Part shown: piece after piece, positions 3,521-36,559 of the stretch
Layout: every line of letters starts with the position of its first letter
Position numbering within the stretch: position 1 is the first letter of the stretch
IMG/VR virus record: IMGVR_UViG_2802429246_000002
Length of the DNA stretch: 47,096 nt
DNA from: a virus
Lineage: Duplodnaviria > Heunggongvirae > Uroviricota > Caudoviricetes
Strand: one strand, 5' to 3'
Program-made: the position numbers and the translations under genes
Notes under the pieces: model-generated
What the model saw: only the letters and a program-made list of their open reading frames with translations
What the model was told of the DNA's origin: nothing
Databases searched by the model: none

Positions 3521-3817
3521 TCAAATAGAGAAATAAATACAAAAACAAAAAATGACAGGAACAGCAAAATCCAACAGACTTCCCACATCCCACACGCGTG
3601 GGTCAAAACCTCCCCACCATGGCATGTTGATACGTTTCCCTTTCCCAAACTTTTCTATCCAGCGATATTCTGCCTGGGTGTGTTCACGCGCAATGAAGAA
3701 CGTACAACCGGCTATCGCACCGTAAGCCCAGTTTCCTGTTATTATTCCGAAGAAACATTGCACAATTATTGATGCAATAGCATGGACAAAAGGAGAATAG
3801 TCAATATTATTCATCAT
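3521..3817 (-). CDS. Small integral membrane protein (unknown function) downstream of tailspike
   Basis: About 99 aa from MMNNIDY; 2-3 hydrophobic helices; AT-rich codon usage. Confidence 0.5.
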   Translation of the reverse strand: MMNNIDYSPFVHAIASIIVQCFFGIITGNWAYGAIAGCTFFIAREHTQAEYRWIEKFGKGKRINMPWWGGFDPRVWDVGSLLDFAVPVIFCFCIYFSI

Positions 3818-3846
3818 AACACCTTCATGAATAAACCATATTCTGC

Positions 3847-6588
3847 TTACACAGCACAAATCCTGATCGTTGCTGTGATATCAGTTTCAGTGCCATTATT
3901 GAGATATAACCTACCGCCTACAATTGACATCCCAATTTTGGTAGAAACTTCTTCATCTGCAGATGTCACCACCACGTTTGTTTTATTGTAATTACCAAGC
4001 GGAGATTCATCAGTCGAATGCCCTGGCCTCAATATCATTCCTACACCTGCAAAGAAATTAGGGTTCCCATTATTTATAACATCCACACAATAAGATAATG
4101 CGCTTTTACTAAGTGGGATGGATTGACTTGTATGTGCCTTAACCCACATTTCCCATACGTATTCACTTTTACGTATCGCCCCCTCACATGAACCAGATGC
4201 ATGGAATAACTTTCCTGATGATACAGTGTTATTGGTGCCAACAAGAATCATCTGATTTCCACCACCAAAGCCAAAGTTATCACCAAGAGATGGTCCACCA
4301 TTAATCCTTAACATATATGCATCAGTACTGCCTGATGAGGCGTCAGAGTTATCTATATATACAGTGCAATCACTTATAAGAACGCCATCAATCTTATCTG
4401 GCGCAACAGTATTAGTTTGGACAACGACGAACTCTCTGGTGGTAGATTTTGCCGAACAACCTTTAATAATTGTTGGTGTTTCAAGAGTATATGTTTGAGT
4501 AATAAAAATGAAATTACTAGGACGAAGCTTCCGATTAACAGCATTTGTTGCTTTCCACCATTTATTGCTTGATTCGGTTGTTTCGCTAAAGCCATCAATA
4601 TAGTGAGTATCGGTAATAGTAATTCCGCTACCATAATACAAACGAATCGGAAGGTTGCTAAATCCTCTAATCTCGCAACCAGATACTATCTCATTAAAAC
4701 CACGTATAGTTGCGCCATAAAAACAGTCAACTGCCACATTGTCTTTATATTTAGACTCTGCGGCACCACCATGACTACCAAACCCATAGGAAAATTCAGT
4801 CCATCCTTCCGATGGAAATATAATCCCACCAGTATAACCAGTTCCGCCACCACGCATTGTAATGTTGGTTACATTATTGTAGAGAGAACTCCAGTTACTC
4901 CCTCCAATATCAACACCACGCCTACAACAAGATGCATTGATATTGTCCACAGTGCAGTAACTGCTATTGGAAACAGAAACAGCATTACCTGTACCACCAT
5001 CACCATTGAAAACTCTATTGATTCCATACAGAGATGTATCACGAACAGTGCATCTTAAGCAGCCTAACAAGGTAATCCCAGCATTCGGGAAATTTTCCAC
5101 ACTAGCGAAACTGGCAATACCGTTTACGCAATATTCGAAGACAACCCCATCATAAGCTTTTTGTCCGCTAGTTGCATTGGTAACTAACCCGTGTATCGTC
5201 CCAACATGAAAATCTCCAGAAATATTAAATGTAGCAGGATAGACAGCCCAGGCCTCAGCTTGCCTAACCAAACGAAATGTATCTCCTGCAGCAGGTTTAT
5301 TTGGGAATCCAGTGTCAGCATTACTACCAATAGTAAATGTTTTTGTGTCATCATCATATGCTGTAACCATTTTGGTTATACCAGCATTATCTCCCGTTAA
5401 TCCAAGAATTTTATAGAGTGCATCACGAGGTGGTGATGTCACTGAGAAATTTGTAGATGTAAATGATTGCCCACTAGATGCGCCAGTAACTGTAACTGTA
5501 ATATTCCCTCCTGAACGGTAGTAATAATATGCATCCTGATCTAATGTCACATTATTTCCACTAAGTGAAACGACTTCAACAATTTGCCCTTCCTGCCAAC
5601 TTCCTCGGTTATCTCCACGAACAAGGTGGTTATTACGAATAACAAGCAAATCTCCGACAGAAATATCAGACACATCATCAAGAGTCACAGTCTTTTCGCC
5701 CAATGATATATCTCTCGTTATGAAATTATGCAATTTAGTACTTGCAATTCCACCAAGCTTTATTGCTGAACCTTCATATCCTACAACATTATTTGTGCAG
5801 AGCAATTCAACCTTTCCTGATGCCACCCAATCGAAGCAACCATATGGAATGGAAATATCTATTTGTGAAAACAGGTACTTTCCTGCTGTCCATTCCAAAC
5901 GCTTTCCGTTAGATGCGCAGTAAATGATGGCATTTGTTATTGCGTCTGTATCGTCAGTAATGCCATCCCCTTTTGCACCAAAATCGCGAACATTGACGAT
6001 ATCCCGCATCTTATCCTGGAACGTTCTGTATACTGCTCCAGAACCATACTGAATAAACAAACCAAAACCACCAACAACTCCGGCGATTGCAGCATCGACA
6101 TAATTACGCATTGAGCGATTATTTACAGCATCCTGCTCAAGTGATGGATCTGCAAGGTTAGAAATTCTGTTTTGTTTTGCATCGTAATATTTTGCAAGCA
6201 GAGAGGGCTTCATCAATGCACGTCTGAACCACCCAAAACATTGCTGGATCAGCATCGTCAGATAGTCAAAGGCATCCTCATGCACTTCGGGGAAAAATTT
6301 TCCCTGATTGCGAAGGTCTGTCTCCTGCACTACATCAAGCACACGATCTATCGTAATTCGCCATCCAGCAGCAAGCGGAGACGGAAGAACCACAGAACCG
6401 CCACTATAAGTGCCCGCCCCAGTTACCGTATAACCGGTATCCAGAACCAATTCTGTTACGTTCCCGTTCAGGTCAGACACCTGAACAACCAGGTCTGATT
6501 TTCTGAAAATTCGAAAAGTATACGGAAACGATGTCGTAACGCCGTTACCTGTGTATTCGTTGTGGTCAACTTCGGTTGAGACCGTCAT
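3847..6588 (-). CDS. Tailspike protein with pectate-lyase-like beta-helix (probable polysaccharide depolymerase)
   Basis: 913 aa; conserved podovirus tailspike N-terminal head-binding region; RDFGAKGDGITDDTDAI beta-helix motif; Ser/Thr/Gly/Asn-rich repetitive body. Confidence 0.8.
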   Translation of the reverse strand: MTVSTEVDHNEYTGNGVTTSFPYTFRIFRKSDLVVQVSDLNGNVTELVLDTGYTVTGAGTYSGGSVVLPSPLAAGWRITIDRVLDVVQETDLRNQGKFFPEVHEDAFDYLTMLIQQCFGWFRRALMKPSLLAKYYDAKQNRISNLADPSLEQDAVNNRSMRNYVDAAIAGVVGGFGLFIQYGSGAVYRTFQDKMRDIVNVRDFGAKGDGITDDTDAITNAIIYCASNGKRLEWTAGKYLFSQIDISIPYGCFDWVASGKVELLCTNNVVGYEGSAIKLGGIASTKLHNFITRDISLGEKTVTLDDVSDISVGDLLVIRNNHLVRGDNRGSWQEGQIVEVVSLSGNNVTLDQDAYYYYRSGGNITVTVTGASSGQSFTSTNFSVTSPPRDALYKILGLTGDNAGITKMVTAYDDDTKTFTIGSNADTGFPNKPAAGDTFRLVRQAEAWAVYPATFNISGDFHVGTIHGLVTNATSGQKAYDGVVFEYCVNGIASFASVENFPNAGITLLGCLRCTVRDTSLYGINRVFNGDGGTGNAVSVSNSSYCTVDNINASCCRRGVDIGGSNWSSLYNNVTNITMRGGGTGYTGGIIFPSEGWTEFSYGFGSHGGAAESKYKDNVAVDCFYGATIRGFNEIVSGCEIRGFSNLPIRLYYGSGITITDTHYIDGFSETTESSNKWWKATNAVNRKLRPSNFIFITQTYTLETPTIIKGCSAKSTTREFVVVQTNTVAPDKIDGVLISDCTVYIDNSDASSGSTDAYMLRINGGPSLGDNFGFGGGNQMILVGTNNTVSSGKLFHASGSCEGAIRKSEYVWEMWVKAHTSQSIPLSKSALSYCVDVINNGNPNFFAGVGMILRPGHSTDESPLGNYNKTNVVVTSADEEVSTKIGMSIVGGRLYLNNGTETDITATIRICAV

Positions 6589-6691
6589 GTTAAATCTCCA
6601 GATAGTCGCAGCACCCGTTGCGCCGCATATCTGGTTATTCTATTACCTGAAAAACCACATATGGATAGAAAGACTGTAAATACGAATAGAT

Positions 6692-6708
6692 ATTACCTTT
6701 CAGGTAAT
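6692..6708. promoter_or_regulatory. 17-bp inverted repeat attacct-ttc-aggtaat (operator-like site A)
   Basis: Exact 7-bp arms, reverse complements of each other; member of a family of at least 13 sites. Confidence 0.6.
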
Positions 6709-6744
6709 TTGCAAAACGTGCTGGATAGCAAACAAATTATTTGC

Positions 6745-6764
6745 TACTGTATAAATATACAGTT
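6745..6764. promoter_or_regulatory. Putative LexA (SOS) box TACTGTATAAATATACAGTT
   Basis: CTGT-N8-ACAG with AT-rich spacer, near-consensus, about 20 bp upstream of the ATG at 6784 with GGAG RBS in between. Confidence 0.7.
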
Positions 6765-6783
6765 ATTGCATGGAGAAGATAAG

Positions 6784-7041
6784 ATGCAGCAGTATCACTA
6801 TCCACTGGAAGACGGATTTACCGAAAGGATTCACACGCCGGGAGGCGTCAGATCACTGGTGGAGGGATCGCACTTGATGAAATTACTCCGGGATCTCGAT
6901 AAGGATGGATTTAATGTCGATGGCCCACTTGCCGAACTGACTGCACTGATTAACTACGTCACCAGCTCACAGATGTCTATGCAGGATCTGCAAACACATC
7001 TCGACTATTGTGCCGAACAATTACGAAAACAAACCCGGTAA
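6784..7041 (+). CDS. Small antirepressor-like protein (homolog of the C-terminal domain of the antirepressor at 8190..8885)
   Basis: 85 aa from MQQYHYPLEDGF; aligns with C-terminus of the 8190 ORF (Y..PL..G...IH.P.GV..L.E.S.LM.LL..L..DG..V.G..AELT); LexA box upstream. Confidence 0.6.
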   Translation: MQQYHYPLEDGFTERIHTPGGVRSLVEGSHLMKLLRDLDKDGFNVDGPLAELTALINYVTSSQMSMQDLQTHLDYCAEQLRKQTR

Positions 7042-7063
7042 ATTTAAAGGCCGCAAGAGCGGC

Positions 7064-7792
7064 CTATCGTTTCGCTTTGTGCTCGTCCCAGCACGTTTTG
7101 CACCATGCCATTAAGCCGTCCGCATTTTGATTATTAGGGTAAAAGCTGGTTCGTTTTCTGCGGACATTACAAATTGGGCACCACTTCATATGACGTGTAT
7201 TCTTTGGGCCATCGAGACACCTTGCACACCACTTAGTCAATCCATCTGGATTTTTTGACGATTTCCTGAATTTTTCATATGGAAGGTTTATTCTGCATCG
7301 CAAGCACTGCTTGCTACCGCTTGAAACTCTGTTAGCTGATTCTTCTTTTGGCGGCGATACAGAAGATATTCTTGCTGGCTCTGATACTGCCTGAGGTGCT
7401 TTTTTAAATGACTGAGACGATATGTCATCACCAGGGAATCTTCCATGATATGCCGGACGCGTTGACACTCCAGGTGGAAGCTCAGCTGTAAACGGCTTTG
7501 GCTGAATCAGTTGCCTCTCTTTTGCTAACTCCTGCTGTTTATAATATGTCTGGATTACCGCACTATCATAAGCAGGAGGTGCGGAAATATTAGGCGCATT
7601 ACCTCCAGTTTTTTGAAACTGAGTAGAGGTGTGTTCTATCACCTGTGTACGATTAATCGTTATCTCCCCATCTTCGGTCTTTATCGTTTTGTTATGATTA
7701 ACGACCGTACGATCAGAGATCTTAGTCTTGTTCTGGTTGATAACGTAAATAATCACCGTAACCACACCAACAACTATCCAGAAAACTTCCAT
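7064..7792 (-). CDS. Membrane-anchored protein with Pro-rich linker and tandem C-terminal zinc-ribbon repeats
   Basis: N-terminal TM helix; two repeats of C-x2-C-x(13-17)-DGL-x2-WC-x2-C; GAGGAA RBS; operator-like site 20 bp upstream. Confidence 0.6.
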   Translation of the reverse strand: MEVFWIVVGVVTVIIYVINQNKTKISDRTVVNHNKTIKTEDGEITINRTQVIEHTSTQFQKTGGNAPNISAPPAYDSAVIQTYYKQQELAKERQLIQPKPFTAELPPGVSTRPAYHGRFPGDDISSQSFKKAPQAVSEPARISSVSPPKEESANRVSSGSKQCLRCRINLPYEKFRKSSKNPDGLTKWCARCLDGPKNTRHMKWCPICNVRRKRTSFYPNNQNADGLMAWCKTCWDEHKAKR

Positions 7793-7811
7793 TGCTTTTC
7801 CTCACAATAAC

Positions 7812-7828
7812 ATTACCTTAAAGGTAAT
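7812..7828. promoter_or_regulatory. 17-bp inverted repeat attacct-taa-aggtaat (site B)
   Basis: Exact arms; about 20 bp upstream of the minus-strand gene starting at 7792. Confidence 0.6.
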
Positions 7829-7904
7829 ATCTTGCTTTCAGGTGATCAAGCATTAAACGCAACCAACCAAATACGGTTGATTTTAATATTTATTCGCGTT
7901 TATC

Positions 7905-7921
7905 ATTACCTTTGCGGTAAA
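7905..7921. promoter_or_regulatory. 17-bp inverted repeat attacct-ttg-cggtaaa (site B2)
   Basis: Same motif family with one arm mismatch. Confidence 0.5.
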
Positions 7922-8189
7922 TTTACATCGCACTCCTCTTGTGCCATAGTAATCGGGCACTGGCAAAATCCAGTGCCGGGATTGGCGTCCCGGATTACTA
8001 AAAGGCGCATTCACCGCGCAAGCGGTTTTTTTATGCGTATAGCACGGCCACATTCGTATTATGGTGGGCTGTGTGGGGGCACCGAAAGGTGCGCCGGGTC
8101 CTTTTAGCCGGTTACGCCAACCCTGCACAGTTCACCACCAACCGATTGGCGTCGGTAGTGGTGATTAACCAGACTAAAAGGTAACCACT

Positions 8190-8885
8190 ATGACAGCTAC
8201 AAAAAGCACGTCCATTTTTTCTTTCGAATCCCAAGCCGATATACGGGTAATCGTCATTAATGGTGAGCCATGGTTTATCGCTTCAGATGTTTGTCGGGCT
8301 ATAGGCATAGCAAACCATCGAGATGCTGTTCGAAAACTTGATGATGATGAGAAGGGCGTCGCTTCAACCGACACCCCTGGCGGTGAGCAAGAATCGATCA
8401 TTATCTCCGAGTCAGGCCTCTACACACTGATCCTCCGCTGCCGCGATGCGGTGACACCAGGCACTATCCCCTACCGCTTTCGTAAATGGGTTACAGGTGA
8501 GGTTCTTCCTCAGATCCGCCGCACCGGAAGTTACATTAAAAACTCGCTCCCGCAGGAAGAACGCATAAAGATGGTTGCCGACCAGGTTGCCAACGCCACG
8601 GCGTCAGCAGTAATGCAGGCGATGAAGATAGAGAACAAAACCTACAGCGCCCCGCTGAAGCCAGGATACCGCAGTCTGATTCACTCGCCGTCTGGTGTTC
8701 TCGGCCTGACGGAGAACTCACTGCTGATGAATCTGCTGAACCAGTTACAGGAAGACGGGCATGATGTATCGGGCGCGGCGGCGGAGCTGACCACCATGTT
8801 CTGCTACATCGTCGGTGTGAGTAAATGCCTGCGTGATATCCAGACGCATGCGGAGTACATCAACGACAAGGCTGGGTTCTTCTGA
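8190..8885 (+). CDS. Antirepressor (Bro-N/KilA-type N-terminal domain + Ant C-terminal domain)
   Basis: N-terminal IRVIVINGEPWFIASDVCRAIG...ISESGLYTLILRCRD resembles Bro-N; C-terminal domain homologous to the 6784..7041 ORF. Confidence 0.7.
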   Translation: MTATKSTSIFSFESQADIRVIVINGEPWFIASDVCRAIGIANHRDAVRKLDDDEKGVASTDTPGGEQESIIISESGLYTLILRCRDAVTPGTIPYRFRKWVTGEVLPQIRRTGSYIKNSLPQEERIKMVADQVANATASAVMQAMKIENKTYSAPLKPGYRSLIHSPSGVLGLTENSLLMNLLNQLQEDGHDVSGAAAELTTMFCYIVGVSKCLRDIQTHAEYINDKAGFF

Positions 8886-8950
8886 CGGGCGGCGGCACAG
8901 GGATGTGCCTTTAAAATAATCATTGGCGATGTGATGTAGATTCGCGTAAT

Positions 8951-8967
8951 ATTACCTTAAAGGTAAA
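8951..8967. promoter_or_regulatory. 17-bp inverted repeat attacct-taa-aggtaaa (site C)
   Basis: Sits 26 bp upstream of the ATG at 8993 with strong GAGGAGGAG RBS in between. Confidence 0.55.
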
Positions 8968-8992
8968 CCATGTGTTTACATGAGGAGGAGAT

Positions 8993-9202
8993 ATGGGATT
9001 TTGGTTCGCTCGTACAAAAACGAGGGATAATGCACCCAGCCCTCAGGCAAAAAATGCAGAAGTTCCGGCGTCAGCGCAGGTTAACAAGCGTGGTGGAGTA
9101 TATATCTCATCACAGCAAATTTCTGAGCTTCCTGAGGTTAAGGAGATGCGTCGTCTCGCTGCTGCAATTGTTAAACAGGATCTTGCCACTGTAAGGAAGT
9201 AG
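8993..9202 (+). CDS. Small soluble protein (69 aa), first gene of a two-gene cargo operon
   Basis: Strong RBS GAGGAGGAG; stop overlaps start of the downstream membrane protein gene (TAGTG); no recognizable domain. Confidence 0.55.
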   Translation: MGFWFARTKTRDNAPSPQAKNAEVPASAQVNKRGGVYISSQQISELPEVKEMRRLAAAIVKQDLATVRK

Positions 9203-10068
9203 TGTTGCTAGCTCTTCTAATTATCCCAATCCTGGTTAGCGGTTATATTATGATAACCGCTAACCAGTATCATTATTTCCGTTTATACCGACACGAAGGC
9301 CAGCTTCTTTATATGAAAGTAGCGGCACTAGGTACATATTGCCTTGTTGCATCAGTAATAATTGCAGCCGCTATAAAATATAAATGGCCTGATTTTCACC
9401 TAGTTCACGATATGGTGGAAACTTTTAATGTAACATCAAAACCAGAAACAGATAGAATTTACATGTGGCTGCTTCTTCTCTCAGCCACATCCATTTGCTT
9501 CTCTTTGTGTTATGTGTCTGTTGTGTGGGTGAAAGATTTTCTTCTTGGTTGTTTTTATAAACGTGATATTTACGAGCAAAAAACAGAGGCAATGAAGGCC
9601 AGAGTACTGCGAAAAACTTACTCGCAGGGTTCTTTAGACTTACTATTGCTTGATGCTATTGAATCGGATCCTAAACGACCAATGCTGATTACTTTATCAT
9701 CAAACAAAGTGTATGTTGGAATAATAAATGGTTCTGGTGAACCAACGGAAAATCAGGGTCCGCATCAGCACATATCTTTTGTTCCTTTAATGTCAGGATA
9801 CAGGAACAAAGAAAACTTATCTGTCACATTCACTAATGCTTATCCAGGAGAAATACAGGTCAAGCGGACTGCAGCAATAAGAGGAATTAGCAGAAAGAAA
9901 GTGCCAGGACTTGAGATCATGGTGTCTATTGACGAAATAAGTTATATATCATGGTTTGATTTTGAAGTATATAAAGCAACAAATAACAAAGTAGAATCCA
10001 GGGGGCACGTTATTCGTGTTACCAAAAATGGAAGAAATATATATCAAAGAAATAGCAAAAAAGAATAG
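9202..10068 (+). CDS. Integral membrane protein (3-4 N-terminal TM helices) with ~150 aa C-terminal soluble domain; unknown function
   Basis: 288 aa; GTG start overlapping upstream stop; AT-rich codon usage; followed by intrinsic terminator. Confidence 0.65.
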   Translation: MLLALLIIPILVSGYIMITANQYHYFRLYRHEGQLLYMKVAALGTYCLVASVIIAAAIKYKWPDFHLVHDMVETFNVTSKPETDRIYMWLLLLSATSICFSLCYVSVVWVKDFLLGCFYKRDIYEQKTEAMKARVLRKTYSQGSLDLLLLDAIESDPKRPMLITLSSNKVYVGIINGSGEPTENQGPHQHISFVPLMSGYRNKENLSVTFTNAYPGEIQVKRTAAIRGISRKKVPGLEIMVSIDEISYISWFDFEVYKATNNKVESRGHVIRVTKNGRNIYQRNSKKE

Positions 10069-10088
10069 CCCGCGCCGCGGGCTTTTTT
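10068..10088 (+). terminator. Rho-independent terminator (GC stem gcccg/cgggc + T6)
   Basis: Hairpin followed by TTTTTT directly after the stop of the 9202..10068 gene. Confidence 0.6.
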
Positions 10089-10160
10089 GTGGACGAAACA
10101 AAAGTCAGTGCTACACTCATTGACGCCACATTGAGATGGCTTATAGATGGAAATTTCACA

Positions 10161-10322
10161 ATGAAAAAAGCATTTGCTGCACTGTTCGTTTTGTTGTCTC
10201 TGGTAGCTTCAACTCAGGCCTTTGCCGGTCGTTGTCAGCACGACAGCGATACTGCTGCTGACGGCTCCCGCTGCGGTGGGCGTTCTGCGGATTCCCGCCC
10301 GGGCGGCGGTGGCATCCGTTAA
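10161..10322 (+). CDS. Small secreted Cys-containing peptide (signal peptide + ~30 aa mature, Gly/Asp/Arg-rich)
   Basis: MKKAFAALFVLLSLVASTQAFAG signal peptide, AFA cleavage motif; start chosen at internal Met 10161. Confidence 0.4.
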   Translation: MKKAFAALFVLLSLVASTQAFAGRCQHDSDTAADGSRCGGRSADSRPGGGGIR

Positions 10323-10351
10323 AAACAAGGCCGCGAAAGCGTCCTGTTTGA

Positions 10352-11203
10352 TCACTGTGCAGTTTTCGCTGATCGATTTTCAGCTCTAAATTCAAGAACC
10401 GTTTCAATATTTCTTTCCTTCAGCATATCAATAACATTTTTATTCATTTGACTATCACTGGTTAATAACTGGTAAACGTTGCTTCTCTCTTTATCAGAGT
10501 TTTCTTTAACAGCTGCTTTGCATGCCAAATGCTTATTGAAATTTTCTACATCGCTAGTACAGGAATTTACGGCTGCTGATGAAATATCAGACGCTGAAGA
10601 AACACCATCATCCAAACGTTTTATAGCATTTTCTATACATGAGTTAAGGGAATAAACGACAACTGAGCGATACCCTTCAGACGCACACCATTCTAAATTT
10701 CTTGAAGGATCGAGTGGTTTTACTTCGCTGGATTGAATTAACTTGTCAAAAACTGACTTATATTCAATCTGTTTTTTATCTATAGCCCATACTTCAGTAG
10801 CTGATTTATAATTCCCCGTATGCCTATTAACATCAAATCCATGTTTTATAAGCAAATCTGCCCATGAAAGATTTATTGATTCATTGTTATGAGGCCATTT
10901 TCCTGTCAGAACCGCCCCCATAGACCCCATATATCCGCCATATGATGGTATAGCACCATGGCTCAGTAACTTCTCAGCAACCACAGGGCAATTAATTACA
11001 TAAGAGGCGTAAAGCCCATTCCATAAAGCCCCTCTATAGTAATCGCCACGATTAGGTTCTTTTAAGTCGATAGCCTTTGATAATTGTTCACACGTTTTGC
11101 ATGCATCAAAGTTATCCTTATTGCATTGCAATGAACTGGCAGCTGTAGGATTTACAGAGACTATTGAAAGCACTATGCCAAAAAACAAATTTATTTTTTT
11201 CAT
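10352..11203 (-). CDS. Secreted protein with possible ankyrin-like repeats (AT-rich cargo gene at the end of the ejection-protein operon)
   Basis: N-terminal signal peptide; segments VAEKLLSHGAIPS and WADLLIKHGFDVN loosely resemble ankyrin repeat cores; about 38% GC; starts 1 bp after the stop of the upstream gene. Confidence 0.5.
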   Translation of the reverse strand: MKKINLFFGIVLSIVSVNPTAASSLQCNKDNFDACKTCEQLSKAIDLKEPNRGDYYRGALWNGLYASYVINCPVVAEKLLSHGAIPSYGGYMGSMGAVLTGKWPHNNESINLSWADLLIKHGFDVNRHTGNYKSATEVWAIDKKQIEYKSVFDKLIQSSEVKPLDPSRNLEWCASEGYRSVVVYSLNSCIENAIKRLDDGVSSASDISSAAVNSCTSDVENFNKHLACKAAVKENSDKERSNVYQLLTSDSQMNKNVIDMLKERNIETVLEFRAENRSAKTAQ

Positions 11204-11204
11204 C

Positions 11205-14200
11205 CTATTTCATCTGCTCTTCAACTTTATTTAGTAATGGTGATATCGCCCACAGATTCTGAAAAGGTAGCATTTTACGGACAGCGTGGGTTTGCTGGCT
11301 GTCAAATTCTCCGTTAAGTACACCATTTGCAACCGTCGCGGCATCACCGCCAAGATCAAAGGTAGGACCAAGTAAAGCACCAATAGCATTACGACTCTGA
11401 AACCTTGATACCGGAGGCGCACCAAACATCGCGCCAAGACCAAACCTACCGCCGCTTATGTTCTCAACGGTATTCAGCGGCTCAGAGAGCCAGCCAAGCA
11501 TTCCGCCCCGGTCGATCCCCTCTTTCACAAGGTTATTCCAGCTGTAGTCAATATCGCGACCGCTTAACTTCTGTTTCATCATATAGACCATTGAGCCAAG
11601 CGCAATCGTGCCAAGCGCACCAAGATAGAATGCAGCATCGCCCTGCTGGATACCAGATACCAGCACCCTGTTATGCTGTGCGAAGATAAACGTTTTAAAC
11701 TGCGTGATCATCTTCCAGCCTTCTTTACTAAAAAACAGCGGGGTATCACCTACGCCAGGCGTTACAATCACTGAGTCTACATCTTTCAGCACTGCAGACT
11801 GGAAAATCTCTCTAGCGAAACGGTCATCCCACAGATGACTATGCCCGGTTAACAGCCCGTCCATATCCTCTCCGTGCTTCCCGAATTGCTCCCCGATTCG
11901 GCGCAGAACATCTTCATTGATGCCGACCTGTGCCATCTTCCGCATTTCACTTTTGGAGAGCGTGCCACCAGCAGAAACTTTGCGAGCCGCGTCAAGTATC
12001 CTCGACTGCACTATCATCCCGGACCATGATTTAAGTGCGCTGTTCCACTGATTCATCAGCGTCCAGTTACCGAATTTCTGCGTCATCCAGTTCAGACCTC
12101 GCTCAGCGGCGCTTCTCCGGCTATAGGGGTCAGTAAGATCCGCTATAGCCTTTGTACGCGTAGACAGGACATAATCAAGCCCAACGGCCATTTCTCGCAA
12201 ATCCCTGGTTGCAATTTTCACTGAGTCCATATTTTTAAGCATGCTTACCATTGGTCCGAGAGATTTTCTCAGGCCATGCTGCATCATCGGTCGCATCAGA
12301 TCAGTTGCAGCGGAGACAGTCATTCCACCAAGCAAACGGAGGAAGTTAATATTCCTAGCAACTCGCCCGGCACGAACAAAGAAACTGCGTGGATCTTGAG
12401 GTGCACCGTAAGTACCAAGCAGTCGATCACGCATAGCCGTAATATCCCTAATATCAGCCTCCCGTTGCTTCTCAAGAACTGCACGTCGTTTAGGTGTTTT
12501 AGCCTCTTTTATTAGCCGGGTATATTCCTCACTAACCTGACGGATTTGCTCCCCCATATCTTTACGGCCAAACTGCGCAGTCAGCTCAATTTCTGGTGCC
12601 ACCTGCCGGAGATAACTTTCCATGATGTAGTTAACATCTGATTCAAGAAAATCTTCTATACGCTCATCAGGAATAAGCAGCGTTCTGCTTTTAGTGAAAC
12701 CAGCCCGACCAACGAGTCTCTCTGGGATAATATCGGCTGGTACAAGCCCGGAAGGTGCGCCTATTATTTTATTCACGATCTCGTCAGCAGCGTCCTCTGC
12801 TTCCTCTCGGGATAGAGGCTCCATCTGCTTCAGTGCTCGTTCGCGGCTTGCATTCAGCCTTGTGGTTGAATTTGCCCGTTTTTGCAGTCGGCGAAGCTCA
12901 GAACGATATTTCCGTGGATTATCCAGCAACTCCATATGGCGCTGATAGACAGGAAGCTCACTCTTTGCCTGCGCTATATCATCAAGGCGTGTTTTAAGGT
13001 CAGAGCTTTCTTTCATCATTCTTGCCTGAAGTTTTTCTGATGAAGTCTCGGCCAACTCTTTTTCTATTCTTGTAAGACGCGCCTGTGTGTCAGTCTCCTG
13101 AGATATAAGCTTATTTCGTTTATCCAGTTCTTCCATGAGTAGAATTTTTTTACCAGACCATTTCTCCGCTTCAGCGATTTCACTAGCGAGAGCATCAGCG
13201 CGCGGTGCCGATTCCTCTGCAGTTTTTAGCAATGAATTTATCCTTTCAATTCGCTGACCTGCTTTGTCAGCACCTTTGGCACTAATCCCTTGTATCCAGT
13301 TGGCAATTCGCCCTCTGAATTCAGTGCGGTCGGAAAGTATCTTATCGAACTTATAAATGCGGGGAAGATAACTTTTCGCCGTCACGACATCGATATCTTC
13401 AGGAAGGATCCCCAGTTCCTGCATACGGGCTTTTGTGGTCTCGAAAATGGGGCGGATTCTGGCGGCTGCTTGTGAAACCTCAGGAATATCACTCTGATCA
13501 CCACGGCGCATAGCCATGCCAACAGCTTCATTGAAATCAATAAAGTTCATCCTCTTCACGCCGCGGGCGCTAACAGATTTGCTGTACTGCTGGTAAGCAT
13601 CACGAGTAGCTTCCATCTGCTTATAAAGCATGGCGTCGTATTGCTTAATCTTAGTCTCGACTGCTGTAAACGTAGCCAACCCCTCATCATTTTTGGCGAA
13701 GAAATAGTTATTTTCGGCAAGCTGCTGGTTAATCTGACGGGAGACAAGAGATGGTGATTGCGCCAAGCGGCCAGCAGGAGTGACACTCAACGTTTTGTTA
13801 GCAAGTCCAAGTCCAGCGAGCTGTTCCTGATCGAGTGTGGTATTGAAAACCTGAGCTGCACCAATGCTTTGAGGAGAATCCATACCTCGCAAATGATTAC
13901 CTACTGAGTTAACCACTGCCTCGCGCGCGCCAGGTCCAGCAAGTAGCTGTGCACCAGCACCAAGAATCCCACCAACGAGAGCATCAACAACAACGTTCGA
14001 TACGCTCTCCATCGGTGAGCGAGCTTCCTGAGTGGCCTGTAATGCGGCCTCTGAAGCAACACTGCCAGCAGCATTCGCCATGGCAAAACGCCCGGCTGTT
14101 TCTGCAATACGACCGCCACGAACGACAGCGCCGAACGGAATAAACATAGAAATCGCATTGAATGGATCTGCTAATCTCATTGCTACAGAAGAGACTGTAC

Positions 14201-14594
14201 CAGCAAATCCCAAGCCTGAATTGTATTCCATGTCAGCTCTCTGCTGATCGATTCGATGTTTAATTGCCATTGTTTCTTCAGGCGAACCGGAGTTGATAAA
14301 CGAATCTGCAAAATCTTCATAGCCTTTAATATCTGCTGCATCGTTATCAAATGGGTTATATCCTTCAACCCTGTCAAACTGACTGAAAGGAGCACTGGCA
14401 ATAAAGCTACCCAGCGTGTTATCTATACGAAATGCTGCTTGTCTAGACCTTTGAACGCGTTGATCACTGGTAAATGGGTTCACAGCAGAAAGCAAAGAAG
14501 GTGTTTCCATATAGAAATTACTGTCATCAGGTGCTGCTATTTGCTGAATATCCTCGCCAAGCAACTCTTTAGGATCCTGTTCATATATCGGCAT
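11205..14594 (-). CDS. Internal virion / DNA-ejection protein (large, 1129 aa)
   Basis: Size, position after tail tubular genes, coiled-coil-rich sequence; typical of podovirus core/ejection proteins. Confidence 0.6.
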   Translation of the reverse strand: MPIYEQDPKELLGEDIQQIAAPDDSNFYMETPSLLSAVNPFTSDQRVQRSRQAAFRIDNTLGSFIASAPFSQFDRVEGYNPFDNDAADIKGYEDFADSFINSGSPEETMAIKHRIDQQRADMEYNSGLGFAGTVSSVAMRLADPFNAISMFIPFGAVVRGGRIAETAGRFAMANAAGSVASEAALQATQEARSPMESVSNVVVDALVGGILGAGAQLLAGPGAREAVVNSVGNHLRGMDSPQSIGAAQVFNTTLDQEQLAGLGLANKTLSVTPAGRLAQSPSLVSRQINQQLAENNYFFAKNDEGLATFTAVETKIKQYDAMLYKQMEATRDAYQQYSKSVSARGVKRMNFIDFNEAVGMAMRRGDQSDIPEVSQAAARIRPIFETTKARMQELGILPEDIDVVTAKSYLPRIYKFDKILSDRTEFRGRIANWIQGISAKGADKAGQRIERINSLLKTAEESAPRADALASEIAEAEKWSGKKILLMEELDKRNKLISQETDTQARLTRIEKELAETSSEKLQARMMKESSDLKTRLDDIAQAKSELPVYQRHMELLDNPRKYRSELRRLQKRANSTTRLNASRERALKQMEPLSREEAEDAADEIVNKIIGAPSGLVPADIIPERLVGRAGFTKSRTLLIPDERIEDFLESDVNYIMESYLRQVAPEIELTAQFGRKDMGEQIRQVSEEYTRLIKEAKTPKRRAVLEKQREADIRDITAMRDRLLGTYGAPQDPRSFFVRAGRVARNINFLRLLGGMTVSAATDLMRPMMQHGLRKSLGPMVSMLKNMDSVKIATRDLREMAVGLDYVLSTRTKAIADLTDPYSRRSAAERGLNWMTQKFGNWTLMNQWNSALKSWSGMIVQSRILDAARKVSAGGTLSKSEMRKMAQVGINEDVLRRIGEQFGKHGEDMDGLLTGHSHLWDDRFAREIFQSAVLKDVDSVIVTPGVGDTPLFFSKEGWKMITQFKTFIFAQHNRVLVSGIQQGDAAFYLGALGTIALGSMVYMMKQKLSGRDIDYSWNNLVKEGIDRGGMLGWLSEPLNTVENISGGRFGLGAMFGAPPVSRFQSRNAIGALLGPTFDLGGDAATVANGVLNGEFDSQQTHAVRKMLPFQNLWAISPLLNKVEEQMK

Positions 14595-26557: not shown

Positions 26558-26646
26558 ATCAATGACTCCGTACGCAATTAAATTATTACCAATTTAACCA
26601 CATATGATTTATTTATCGTAGATAGTTGACATTTAACGCACGAATT

Positions 26647-26663
26647 ATTACCTTTCAGGTAAC
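26647..26663. promoter_or_regulatory. 17-bp inverted repeat attacct-ttc-aggtaac (site D)
   Basis: Same motif family; upstream of the GC-rich structured region and tRNA. Confidence 0.5.
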
Positions 26664-26984
26664 CAAAGAGTTCATTCCGGTTACTAACCTGACTGGCTTG
26701 TCGTTAAATTGAACAGGTGGAGTGAGCTTTTATTTTGAGCAGTACGGCGTATGGCACATGCGCCGATAGCGGTCTGGATACGTTTAAGGGGCACCCTCCC
26801 TTGCTCGGGCAAACGAACCAGGTAGCCGGAATGTGCAAGTCGAGCGGTTTTATTCCGCGCACGGGGATTCACCATCCCGGCGATTCGGTGTGACACCTCG
26901 GAAGAGACGAGGGTACAACGATGAGGGCATTTATGGAGCCGCGACAAAGTGTGGTGCCTTAACAGGCTAAGTGCTCTCAGCGTT

Positions 26985-27061
26985 GTGGCATTAGCTCAGC
27001 TGGACAGAGCAACCGCCTTCTAAGCGGTTGGTCGCAGGTTCGAATCCTGCATGCCACGCCA
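26985..27061 (+). tRNA. tRNA-Arg (anticodon UCU), phage-encoded
   Basis: Manual fold: acceptor GTGGCAT/ATGCCAC, D-stem GCTC/GAGC, anticodon stem ACCGC/GCGGT with loop CTTCTAA, T-stem GCAGG/CCTGC with loop TTCGAAT, discriminator G, encoded CCA; sequence differs from E. coli argU. Confidence 0.85.
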
Positions 27062-27104
27062 GAATCACGCCTAAGGACCGTGATGCCAGAAGTTCCATGG
27101 GCTT

Positions 27105-27146
27105 GGCGGTGATGGTTTCCCTTGAAGGACTATCACCGCCCTTTTT
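27105..27146 (+). terminator. Rho-independent terminator downstream of tRNA (stem ggcggtgat/atcaccgcc + CTTTTT)
   Basis: 9-bp stem followed by T-run on plus strand. Confidence 0.55.
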
Positions 27147-27224
27147 ACAGCAGGACGCCATTGCGATGACTTCATGCTGTAAACCAGTACAGCCACGGAA
27201 GGCATAACTCATTGCTTCCAGTTC

Positions 27225-27248
27225 GCCCGGTTCGCCGGGCATTTTTTT
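27225..27248 (+). terminator. Rho-independent terminator (gcccgg-ttcg-ccgggc + T7)
   Basis: Perfect 6-bp GC stem with tetraloop followed by TTTTTTT. Confidence 0.65.
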
Positions 27249-27263
27249 GCCTGGTGACTGAAC

Positions 27264-27280
27264 GTTACCTTGAAGGTAAG
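27264..27280. promoter_or_regulatory. 17-bp inverted repeat gttacct-tga-aggtaag (site E)
   Basis: Core TTACCT-N3-AGGTAA intact; 32 bp upstream of the ATG at 27312. Confidence 0.5.
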
Positions 27281-27311
27281 ATAACAAAAACATTTAACAT
27301 CTGGTTTAGAC

Positions 27312-27917
27312 ATGTTCGAGCAATTTAAAGAGATCGCATCATCGGCTATTAGCACAACGTCAGAGAGAGTCCGCAACCCAGCACTTGGGGCATTTGTGTT
27401 TTCGTGGTGTTCTTTTAACTGGAATCCACTATTATTTTTATTCTTCAGTAAGTCAGGAATTGAAGAAAAAATAAATTATATATCTTCCCATAGTGATGCG
27501 TACCACTCACTCTTATATCCAGCTTTATGTGCATTCGCGCTGTGTGTAATAGTTCCATGGTTTAACAATATAGTGGTGATGTTTCAAAAAATTCCACTAC
27601 AGAACATCGATAACTTCAAACACAACAAAAGCCTCAGGGATGTTAAAAACGCCATAGAATTGCGTAAGCTTGAGGCACAAAGGGACATTACATACGACAG
27701 AGTTAAGGTTGAGTTTGAGTCTGAGATTCAATTCTATAAAAATGATTTAATCAAGCACCAAGAGTCTTTGAATTCTTTTTTGCAGGAAAGAGATTCCCTT
27801 ATTGAAAAAATAATGGCGCTTGAAAAAGAACTTGCAGAAGAAAAAATAAAATCCAATACCAGAATTGCAAATAAGTTTAACTCAAGGAACAATCGCAACA
27901 CAGACAATGCTGCTTAA
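27312..27917 (+). CDS. Cargo membrane protein: two N-terminal TM helices + C-terminal coiled coil (unknown function)
   Basis: 201 aa; about 35% GC; opposite strand to flanking terminase and portal genes; preceded by operator-like site. Confidence 0.65.
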   Translation: MFEQFKEIASSAISTTSERVRNPALGAFVFSWCSFNWNPLLFLFFSKSGIEEKINYISSHSDAYHSLLYPALCAFALCVIVPWFNNIVVMFQKIPLQNIDNFKHNKSLRDVKNAIELRKLEAQRDITYDRVKVEFESEIQFYKNDLIKHQESLNSFLQERDSLIEKIMALEKELAEEKIKSNTRIANKFNSRNNRNTDNAA

Positions 27918-27921
27918 AACT

Positions 27922-35886: not shown

Positions 35887-35920
35887 GTTACCTATGAGGT
35901 GCATTTACCTGTTGGGTAAT
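35887..35920. promoter_or_regulatory. Tandem operator-like sites gttacct-atg-aggtgca and tttacct-gtt-gggtaat in the divergent immunity intergenic region
   Basis: Two adjacent 17-bp sites of the aTTACCT-N3-AGGTAAt family between the cro-like start (35820) and repressor start (35975); extra half-site aggtaac at 35866. Confidence 0.6.
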
Positions 35921-35974: not shown

Positions 35975-36559
35975 ATGAAAAGTATCCAGGACGTCCGCAG
36001 GCAAAATCTCAACGACTTGATCGACCGTGAATTCAATGGTGTTCAGACGCGGATGGCAGAAAAACTTGGAACTCAGGCAAATCTGGTAAACCGCTGGGCT
36101 CTTGGCAAGAAGGTTATCGGCGACCAGGTTGCGCGAAAAATTGAAGCTGCCGCCAATAAACCCCGTAACTGGCTTGATATCGATCGCTCGCTTTCTCAGG
36201 AAGGTTTTCAGCCTGTCGGCCCAAGCGACATTGGTCAGCTGGCGGCTCACAACCTGGAACGCTGGATGAGCGAAAGCCGCGACCTTTCAACACAGGGAAA
36301 ACTTCACCGCGCATCCGGCGTCGCCCAGGTAACAATCAGCCGCCTGTTAAACAATGAGGTCAGCGTTTCCATTTCCACCCTGGAGAATGTTGCATCCGCA
36401 TTCGGGCGTCACGGCTATGAATTACTGATTCACCCGCACGACCCTGCGACCATCAACTATGACCGCTCGCGCTACGCATTGTTACCCGAAACCGAGAAAG
36501 CAAAGATCGAAAGTTACATTGAATTTGTCATCAACCAGAACGAAAAAAATAAACAATAA
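35975..36559 (+). CDS. Prophage repressor (CI-like), two HTH-like regions, no obvious LexA/S24-type autocleavage domain
   Basis: 194 aa; N-terminal XRE-type HTH (VQTRMAEKLGTQANLVNRW) and second HTH-like segment (GVAQVTISRLLNNEVSVSISTLENVA); divergent to cro-like gene. Confidence 0.65.
   Translation: MKSIQDVRRQNLNDLIDREFNGVQTRMAEKLGTQANLVNRWALGKKVIGDQVARKIEAAANKPRNWLDIDRSLSQEGFQPVGPSDIGQLAAHNLERWMSESRDLSTQGKLHRASGVAQVTISRLLNNEVSVSISTLENVASAFGRHGYELLIHPHDPATINYDRSRYALLPETEKAKIESYIEFVINQNEKNKQ

Follow-up and report, generated by a model that had tools for sequence, protein, structure and literature searches.

What is a 4.6-kb block of genes doing between the tailspike gene and a virion protein gene of an integrated podovirus, and how would it bear on the exit from lysogeny? 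The block lies in IMG/VR record IMGVR_UViG_2802429246_000002, a stretch of 47,096 nucleotides (nt), hereafter the window, which is an Escherichia coli chromosome segment with a ~40.5-kb epsilon15/phiV10-like (Uetakevirus-type) prophage inside. This island occupies positions 6589-11204, between the start of the tailspike gene at 6588 and the stop, at 11205, of the gene for a 1129-amino acid (aa) virion protein. A preliminary description of the sequence had the coordinates of the block and its place between these two genes right, according to the map of open reading frames (ORFs), and all seven ORFs that it listed are present. Our answer, to which we give a probability of roughly 0.8, is that about six exchangeable cassettes make up an anti-immunity (immunity-I or immI-type) region of this epsilon15-like (Uetakevirus) prophage, which is at the same time a hot spot for cargo. 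Its content argues for an immunity-I region by function and not by position alone, of the types known from SPC32H (LexA/Ant/Rep) and phage P1 (C4) and not of the P22 Arc/Mnt type.

Cassette 1 holds a small antirepressor gene and its control sites, and the repressor gene lies outside the island:

6692-6708, unstranded: putative Rep operator O1, ATTACCTTTCAGGTAAT, an exact palindrome in the tailspike/ant85 divergent intergenic region
6745-6764, unstranded: LexA (SOS) box TACTGTATAAATATACAGTT, of the form CTGT-N8-ACAG
6784-7041, + strand: ant85, small antirepressor of 85 aa, orthologue of SPC32H Ant and epsilon15 gp19
35975-36559, + strand: rep, repressor of 194 aa, with flanking operators at 35904, 36616 and 36678

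The ant85 product is 88% identical to the SPC32H ant product and matches chain E of PDB 5D50, "Anti-repressor protein," over 83 aa (E 4e-47), while Rep matches 5D50_A, "Repressor" (E 4e-42), and is labelled "repressor" in ZX5. The LexA box just upstream of ant85 is the sole match in the window (0 expected), in keeping with the small SOS-controlled antirepressor that had been proposed. The box is kept upstream of the ant homologue in relatives, with a constant 53-nt offset from O1 in 11 of 11 E. coli, Salmonella and Enterobacter relatives; Klebsiella phages have a LexA-like box with one half-site mismatch. Pfam returned helix-turn-helix domains only (HTH_3) for Rep and no S24 peptidase domain. 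Since such a Rep cannot cleave itself, induction would depend entirely on antirepressors, and by analogy with SPC32H ant85 would act on Rep and thereby induce the prophage. As in SPC32H and epsilon15, the gene is divergent from the tailspike with a LexA box and a Rep operator upstream, and as in SPC32H the Rep homologue has no self-cleavage domain. The Rep proteins are more distant than the two Ant proteins, and the SPC32H/epsilon15 slot holds one unit and a tiny ORF, whereas here there are five further cassettes, including a second antirepressor that reuses the Ant domain. The SPC32H switch was reportedly worked out by Kim & Ryu in 2013 (J Virol 87:11775) and Kim et al. in 2016, with structures PDB 5D50 and 5D4Z. 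A summary of its antirepression mechanism, with SPC32H Rep reported as a tetramer on palindromic DNA, is available (PMC9638917), and in the ZX5 paper repressors of this type are put at 42% identity to that of epsilon15 (PMC9782041).

The second antirepressor gene is preceded by a 400-bp gap which the preliminary description had passed over, and which contains two RNA genes:

7957-8032, + strand: isrK small RNA, Rfam RF01394, 77.9 bits (gathering score 50)
8013-8032, + strand: isrK terminator, intact
8057-8142, + strand: C4 antisense RNA, Rfam RF01695, 77.7 bits (gathering score 45)
8146-8152 and 8174-8181, + strand: downstream C4 targets b2 (TTGGCGT) and a2 (CTAAAAGG), 7- and 8-nt perfect complements
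8190-8885, + strand: Bro-N antirepressor of 231 aa, Pfam Bro-N 2e-21

Two segments of C4 are available for pairing, namely the hairpin-2 loop a' (CCTTTTAG, 8100-8107), which is perfectly complementary to CTAAAAGG, and the subsequent single-stranded segment b' (ACGCCAA, 8114-8120), which is perfectly complementary to TTGGCGT. Both complements occur twice. The upstream pair lies inside IsrK, with b1 at 7982-7988 (isrK+26) and a1 at 7998-8005 (isrK+42). In the downstream pair a2 overlies the Shine-Dalgarno sequence of the Bro-N gene, 9-16 nt upstream of its ATG at 8190, and C4 may act directly on this ribosome-binding site. Pairing was scored by a loop-by-loop complement matrix for eight phages. 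In 8 of 8, own-type complements of 8-9 nt (a) and 7 nt (b) are found at fixed positions, against 0-6 nt for cross-type combinations, and the loops and both target sets change together across the eight to give three a-types and two b-types:

C4 type A (window, TL-2011b, phiV10, ZX5): a target CTAAAAGG, b target TTGGCGT
C4 type B (EC.W1-9, Tyrion, ST512phi13.3): a target CTACAAAGG, b target TTGGTCT
C4 type C (phiv142-3): a target CTAAGTGG, b target TTGGTCT

Such compensatory changes are strong evidence that the antisense pairing is functional. They also imply immunity classes, of the kind that distinguish phages P1 and P7. The isrK-C4 pair is also present in a Providencia prophage and in the E. 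coli prophage STEC346. Whole-molecule RNAduplex comparison of C4 with its targets gave long duplexes that ignore the C4 fold and were weakly better than shuffles, and a MAFFT alignment of the RNA region, which misplaces the phiv142-3 loops, was not used for covariation. Two ORFs of 35 and 37 aa overlap C4 and the downstream targets (8061-8184) in window-type phages, one of them annotated "ash family protein" in ZX5; since type-B phages do not conserve them, structured RNA may have been mistaken for coding sequence in annotation, and the ORFs may not be leaders of the icd/orf45 kind.

The protein encoded downstream had been called a Bro-N antirepressor, a name that homology supports. In addition to its Bro-N domain, residues 150-226 match 5D50_E (E 1e-13) and the C-terminus is 42% identical to ant85 (E 8e-16), so that by homology this C-terminal domain is a paralogue of the small antirepressor. 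No detectable similarity to P22 Ant was found (E 0.054). The protein is 100% identical to ZX5 ORF4, over-expression of which cut the titre of lysogens from 10^9 to 10^6 and brought repressor mRNA down by 75% (PMC9782041). That study tested only the Bro-N protein and makes no mention of a small Ant, LexA or the RNAs (PMC9782041). The corresponding slot of TL-2011b (4174-10050) has three antirepressor systems, namely a LexA-controlled small Ant, an isrK-C4-Bro-N Ant and a P22-type Arc-sar-Ant set (sar RNA, 44.8 bits with Rfam), and the last 101 aa of its Arc-controlled Ant are 84% identical to those of the Bro-N protein.

How are these units tied to the repressor? Exact matches to TTACC-N5-GGTAA, the core of the palindrome ATTACCT-N3-AGGTAAT, number 12 in the window, where 0.01 would be expected. 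Four of these fall within the island, at 6692, 7812, 7905, and 8951; rep is flanked by three, and the rest lie before early genes and around an accessory patch at 26.6-27.3 kb. In epsilon15 the RefSeq record gives this motif the label "protein_bind: repressor" both in the immunity region and in the sequence that precedes gp19. The alternative spacings ATTACCT-N5-GGTAAT and TTACC-N7-GGTAA yielded chance-level matches only. Besides O1, the island sites are:

7812-7828, unstranded: putative Rep operator O2, overlapping a predicted leftward Zn242 promoter TTGATC-17-TACCTT
7877-7950, + strand: tandem promoter-like sites P1 and P2 upstream of isrK, with putative operator O3 (7905-7921) between them
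8923-8967, + strand: predicted promoter TTGGCG-18-TAATAT with putative operator O4 (8951-8967) over its -10/+1, at the entry to a variable cargo slot

Three of the four island operators thus overlap the -10/+1 of predicted promoters, and a layout recurs. At O3, O4 and 36678 the -10 hexamer runs into the first two operator bases, the last belonging to the immunity-side early promoter TTGACA-17-AATCAT; in a variant, at Zn242 (TTGATC-17) and at the transfer RNA (tRNA) patch (TTGACA-17), the -10 (TACCTT) is inside the operator. Upstream of isrK, predicted promoter P1 is TTGATT-18-TATCAT, its -10 running into O3, and predicted P2 is TTTACA-17-CATAGT with a TG motif, directly after O3 and with its +1 at the isrK 5' end. 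In phage P1 there is a similar promoter pair, one C1-controlled and one constitutive. In seven relatives the operator half-sites and the TTTACA hexamer are kept while the operator centre drifts, the pattern expected for a dimer-binding operator. From this arrangement Rep would repress the promoters that its putative operators overlap. Each unit had been credited with its own operator-like site; that applies to four of the six transcription units, the other two having none.

Is the block accessory or core? The slot was compared in eleven phages and the STEC346 prophage. It measures only ~0.65-0.7 kb in epsilon15, SPC32H and PAS61, which have the small Ant and a tiny ORF only, and 1.7 kb in phiV10, 1.8 kb in Tyrion, 2.2 kb in BUCT711, 2.9 kb in phiv142-3, 3.75 kb in ST512-KPC3phi13.3, 4.6 kb in EC.W1-9 and this prophage, and 5.9 kb in TL-2011b. 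The only universal slot gene is ant85 (12 of 12 relatives). The isrK-C4-Ant cassette is found in 7 of the 11 phages and p53 in 6 relatives; among the relatives compared, Zn242 occurs in TL-2011b and STEC346, p69/p288 in STEC346, and p283 in EC.W1-9. Among 5,426 complete E. coli genomes the highest coverage of the island is 77%, so that none reaches a threshold of 80%. Homology breakpoints cluster at 7041-7065, 7896-7916, 8896-8968, 10058-10060, 10347-10351 and 11204-11206, with homology to seven relatives ending at 7035-7065, and these clusters coincide with terminators and operators. Two of the terminators also mark module junctions:

7048-7065, unstranded: bidirectional terminator hairpin common to ant85 and Zn242, -15.5 kcal/mol
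10067-10083, unstranded: strong bidirectional terminator, with breakpoints at 10058-10060 in four relatives

This coincidence points to a string of about six exchangeable cassettes, bordered by terminators and repressor operators and joined at regulatory punctuation. Terminator-like sites are numerous in the region (13 against 4.9 +/- 2.7 expected), with well-folding hairpins 3' of ant85/Zn242 (7048-7065), isrK (8013-8026) and p288 (10067-10083) and weaker ones after the Bro-N gene and p53/p283, which agrees with the earlier statement that most units have an intrinsic terminator. The same genes in the same order and with uniform composition in related phages had been named beforehand as the outcome that would speak for core content; the relatives differ in content and order, and G+C content is uneven. 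The term accessory island fits the five variable cassettes, but not the small LexA-controlled Ant unit, which is core.

The remaining protein genes are candidates for cargo:

7064-7792, - strand: Zn242, membrane-anchored protein of 242 aa with two C-terminal zinc-ribbon-like repeats (8 Cys), phrog_6762
8993-9202 and 9202-10068, + strand: p69 and p288, a two-gene cassette with a one-base overlap
10161-10322, + strand: p53, signal-peptide-bearing protein of 53 aa with 2 Cys in the mature part, operator-free, phrog_14503 "membrane associated protein"
10352-11203, - strand: p283, signal-peptide protein of 283 aa; 8 Cys are invariant, the N-half is weakly ankyrin-like and the C-half helical

Searches of Pfam, NCBIfam and PADLOC with Zn242, p69, p288, p53 and p283 gave nothing usable. 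Zn242 has one hydrophobic segment (residues 1-21), and its C-terminal regions match zinc-binding parts of endonuclease VII/Lar-type PHROGs, so its earlier designation as a zinc-ribbon membrane protein is apt; the genomic context of a homologue in a Yersinia phage is uninformative. The p69-p288 pair had been described as a two-gene membrane module, which is right for p288 (288 aa), with three predicted transmembrane helices and a predicted Sm/LSm-like C-terminal domain, but not for p69 (69 aa), which is soluble. At E <= 1e-3 the p288 family comprises 2,361 cluster representatives, and no Pfam model matched p288 or 10 distant relatives. A homologue preceded by a 58-90-aa ORF is found in SEN5, Providencia, Citrobacter, Pectobacterium and a metagenome contig; the five contexts are the same island of a Providencia epsilon15-like prophage, a P2-like genome end, two lambdoid prophages beside the integrase, and the metagenome contig. 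The Providencia partner ORF is 47% identical to p69. Recurrence of the pair in five further contexts marks it as a mobile two-gene cassette. Its layout, in which a small upstream gene overlaps a larger one and the pair is conserved, is that of toxin-antitoxin and abortive-infection cassettes; no PADLOC, Pfam or NCBIfam match to toxin, antitoxin or defence families was obtained for p69-p288, and p288 has no detectable similarity to P22 SieA (E 3.1). Our best guess, held with low confidence, is that p69/p288 may act at the membrane as an effector of exclusion or abortive infection, turned on along with the early genes.

The cargo slot 3' of the Bro-N gene has an operator at its entry in every relative with cargo there, and the genes differ. 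It holds p69 and p288 in the window and STEC346, a 108-aa ORF and a DUF2335 protein in EC.W1-9 and ZX5, a 59-aa ORF and a YafO-family toxin in TL-2011b, and small ORFs in phiv142-3. Exchange, at fixed positions, of units that bring along a promoter and a terminator is typical of moron and defence hot spots such as the P2-like cargo slots. The p69/p288 homologues at a P2-like genome end and beside lambdoid integrases conform to this, with the difference that the cargo promoters here bear a phage-repressor operator and that no catalogued defence system matched. Of the hotspot for regulatory and probable exclusion cargo that had been suggested, the hotspot stands as a mosaic slot, with exclusion as a candidate role. 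The small secreted peptide and the secreted protein listed beside it, p53 and p283, do both start with a signal-peptide-like segment, and p283 is predicted to be periplasm-directed. Homologues of p283 are mostly from Klebsiella (84-89% identity), and the p283 start lies right beside the end of the virion protein gene, for which reason p283 is probably the tail of the late operon.

These elements suggest a scheme for the lysogen and its induction. A non-cleavable Rep would occupy its TTACC-N5-GGTAA operators, both in the immunity region and at promoters scattered elsewhere, the island accounting for four, while LexA would silence ant85. DNA damage would remove LexA, and the Ant then made would pull Rep tetramers apart as in SPC32H. 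C4 would meanwhile pair via its two loops with the Bro-N gene ribosome-binding site (a2, b2) and with the IsrK decoy (a1, b1); this pairing would block Bro-N translation and provide sequence-specific immunity in trans against related phages, as in P1/P7 immI. In a feed-forward step, loss of Rep would open the Rep-controlled upstream promoter, excess transcript and IsrK would out-titrate C4, and the Bro-N Ant would reinforce induction. Zn242 and p69-p288, with operators over predicted -10/+1 regions, would come on together with the early genes, p53 would be expressed from its own operator-free promoter, and p283 would be carried by the late operon.

The identities of the genes, the RNA families, the covariation of loops and targets, the excess of operator sites and the mosaic structure are direct results of the analysis; where the promoters lie, in which direction Rep acts, the feed-forward step and what the cargo does are inferred. 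Several points tell against parts of this scheme. The isrK stretch scores 45.1 bits against RF03163, "a1,b1 targets of C4," just under the gathering score of 46.7. A leader ORF like icd or orf45 is not conserved, with none in EC.W1-9 or ST512phi13.3, and the coupling step of P1 and Gifsy-1 may therefore be absent. The promoters were called in our own lenient scan, and a formal sigma-70 scan gave 4 promoter-like sites in the region against 10.7 in shuffles; O1 overlaps neither of the predicted core promoters. Binding of Rep by the Bro-N protein would follow from homology and the ZX5 over-expression result only. Lastly, Rep-operator-like palindromes occur ~45-55 nt upstream of O-antigen conversion genes in epsilon15, SPC32H, phiV10 and Tyrion (2095, 2134, 3094, and 2271, respectively). 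Since these genes are expected to function during lysogeny, the presence of an operator does not necessarily imply silence in a lysogen.

This last point gives some weight to a different view of the cargo, in which Zn242 and p69-p288 are lysogenic-conversion or superinfection-exclusion genes expressed from the prophage and Rep is neutral or activating at their promoters. In addition to the conversion-gene operators, the position parallels that of P22 sieA, p288 homologues are found at classic moron positions (the lambdoid integrase side and a P2-like genome end), and a YafO-family toxin pair sits in the same slot of TL-2011b. The predicted promoters, on the other hand, place both units under Rep control, with operators over the -10/+1 in the layout of the immunity-region early promoter, which argues against expression in the lysogen; nor do Pfam, NCBIfam or PADLOC matches or any similarity of p288 to SieA lend support. 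We regard expression from the prophage as a serious possibility, though clearly not the favored one. It is improbable that the 17-bp palindromes are sites of another regulator, such as a Cro-like protein or a late activator, or are mainly recombination joints between modules. Module breakpoints do coincide with them, O1 stands away from core promoters, and the "repressor" label in epsilon15 is an annotator's prediction. Yet they lie on both sides of rep (35904, 36616, and 36678) and before early operons, they keep half-sites while centers drift as a dimer-binding operator would, and SPC32H Rep is reported, in the summary available, to be tetrameric on palindromic DNA (PMC9638917).

Two further explanations have very little left to recommend them. 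Were isrK and C4 decaying remnants, with the Bro-N antirepressor regulated by transcription only, the frameshifted Bro-N gene of phiV10 and the want of a conserved leader ORF would be accounted for; both RNAs are nevertheless ~30 bits above their gathering scores, the isrK promoter and terminator are intact, and compensatory changes keep loops and targets matched in three specificity classes, which makes decay highly implausible. Slightly less credible still is that the block is core phage content which looks foreign only because small regulatory genes are AT-rich. The universal, syntenic ant85 unit and the occurrence of the isrK-C4-Ant cassette in 7 of 11 phages are what such a view would predict, but four of the six cassettes are missing or replaced in most relatives, epsilon15, SPC32H and PAS61 manage with 0.65-0.7 kb, and the whole block is in none of the complete E. 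coli genomes. By sequence comparison it is refuted for the block as a whole and stands for cassette 1 only.

How does such a region compare with known immunity loci? In P22 the map order is 7-20-16 / sieA / mnt-arc-sar-ant / gene 9, and in both the P22 and the window map the region lies between internal/ejection-protein genes and the tailspike gene, so that the parallel with P22 immI/sieA drawn earlier is sound as to position. Both combine antirepressor control with membrane cargo on the opposite strand. Neither Arc, Mnt, sar RNA, P22-type Ant nor a SieA homologue was detected in the window (no ribbon-helix-helix match; no sar with Rfam); it is the relative TL-2011b that has an Arc-sar-Ant set of the P22 type in the homologous slot. 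In the immI regions of P1 and P7, as in the window, a first target element precedes C4 RNA, and further targets, which cover a ribosome-binding site, come between C4 and an antirepressor gene; a master-repressor operator at the operon promoter region and loop differences that set specificity classes are likewise shared. They differ in having an icd-like coupled ORF, of which there is no conserved counterpart here, where a2 is directly on the Shine-Dalgarno sequence of the antirepressor gene itself; the antirepressor in the window, in the position of Ant1/2, is a Bro-N protein with an SPC32H-Ant domain, and P1 is a plasmid myovirus and the phage here an integrated podovirus. The c4-icd-ant operon of P1 is repressed by C1 and additionally needs C4 RNA (PMC8198154). 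In the isrK-orf45-anrP region of Salmonella Gifsy-1, as here, isrK has a terminator of its own, a leaky one, and the read-through transcript goes on to a processed RNA of the C4 kind (STnc1160 in Gifsy-1) and to the gene of an antirepressor; in Gifsy-1 short IsrK acts in trans on the long transcript (PMC4825925). Gifsy-1 also needs a translated orf45 leader (PMC4825925), for which the window has no conserved counterpart.

The island is set off from its surroundings in strand and, less consistently, in composition. Its borders are formed by two virion genes, which in this prophage are on the - strand:

3847-6588, - strand: tailspike gene, with pectate-lyase-like and K1-lyase rider domains
11205-14594, - strand: gene of the 1129-aa virion protein, with a phrog_342 "internal virion protein" match

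Five of the seven protein genes and both RNA genes, ~60% of annotated bases, are on the + strand, and the block does lie mostly opposite to the virion genes as first described. It had also been called mostly AT-rich, which is only partly true because composition is heterogeneous and the tailspike is lower in G+C: the island has 43.5% G+C against 47.7% in the prophage (6th percentile among equal-sized windows), with 37.0% in p288, 36.7% in p283, 52.6% in the Bro-N gene, 59% in C4 and 58% in p53, and 41.3% in the adjoining tailspike. The prophage is inserted at the 3' end of guaA (41911-43488, - strand; guaB is at 43557-45092). The published 17-bp attachment core ATTGAGTGGGAATGATT (PMC9782041) is exact at 41909-41925, at the integrase end, and a second, degenerate copy (13/17) is found at 1385-1401, at the lysis-gene end.

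Some neighboring features deserve mention. About 50 nt left of O1, at 6630-6670, a block "ATTCTATTACC...ATATG.AT" shows no variation across 13 phages, distant Klebsiella phages among them. Read on the - strand, the ATTCTATTACC block gives a TAGAAT -10-like element adjoining an operator half-site, and an ATTACC half-site lies near 6642; the block may serve as promoter for the tailspike/lysis unit, a unit set apart from the late operon by the island. At the other border, the 1129-aa virion protein belongs with p283 to a Klebsiella-phage lineage, and its C-terminal 200 aa have 96% identity to ST512-KPC3phi13.3. Most E. coli relatives have an 824-aa protein in its place (TL-2011b, 48% identity over the C-terminal 200 aa). 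The island's right edge is therefore a recombination joint as well, at which phage lineages meet. A hydrophobic 112-aa ORF (3521-3859, - strand) without a Pfam match overlaps the tailspike 3' end, at the site where relatives have O-antigen acetylase or other conversion genes. A second accessory patch is present at 26600-27920, between portal-like and terminase genes. It opens with a promoter-like TTGACA-17-TACCTT overlapped by an operator (26647-26663), continues with ~300 nt of GC-rich untranslated sequence, tRNA-Arg(TCT) at 26985-27061 and an operator at 27264-27280, and ends with a 201-aa ORF (27312-27917, 37% G+C) without a Pfam match.

What does the island mean for phages of this group? 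The SPC32H switch and the P1/Gifsy-1-type C4/IsrK switch were each already known, and it is their combination in one locus with cargo that is new. Current understanding is not overturned, as three known regulatory modules are joined in one locus; the covariation classes of the RNA switch, the deployment of a single antirepressor domain under two or three kinds of control, and the p69/p288 family are worth following up, none of them surprising in kind. Existing annotations of these phages overlook the C4/IsrK switch and the small Ant. More tentatively, the island might be a multi-input induction hub, in which paralogous antirepressors share one Rep-disassembling domain and are gated by LexA/SOS, by C4/IsrK and, in TL-2011b, by Arc/sar, with at least three C4 heteroimmunity classes and with p69/p288 as a repressor-controlled membrane effector (three helices and an Sm-like ring domain). 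If so, the pair would offer a first way into the function of its family, which numbers more than 2,300 sequence clusters, lacks annotation and travels as cargo in at least three types of phage, and superinfection exclusion or abortive infection in the lytic phase would be a plausible role. As a widespread unannotated pair, p69/p288 is in any case a candidate for functional screening, and the immunity classes are testable and can be read straight from the C4 loop sequences. For a prophage group common in pathogenic E. coli, Salmonella and Klebsiella, the arrangement would explain the exit from lysogeny by antirepressors pooled in one exchangeable block.

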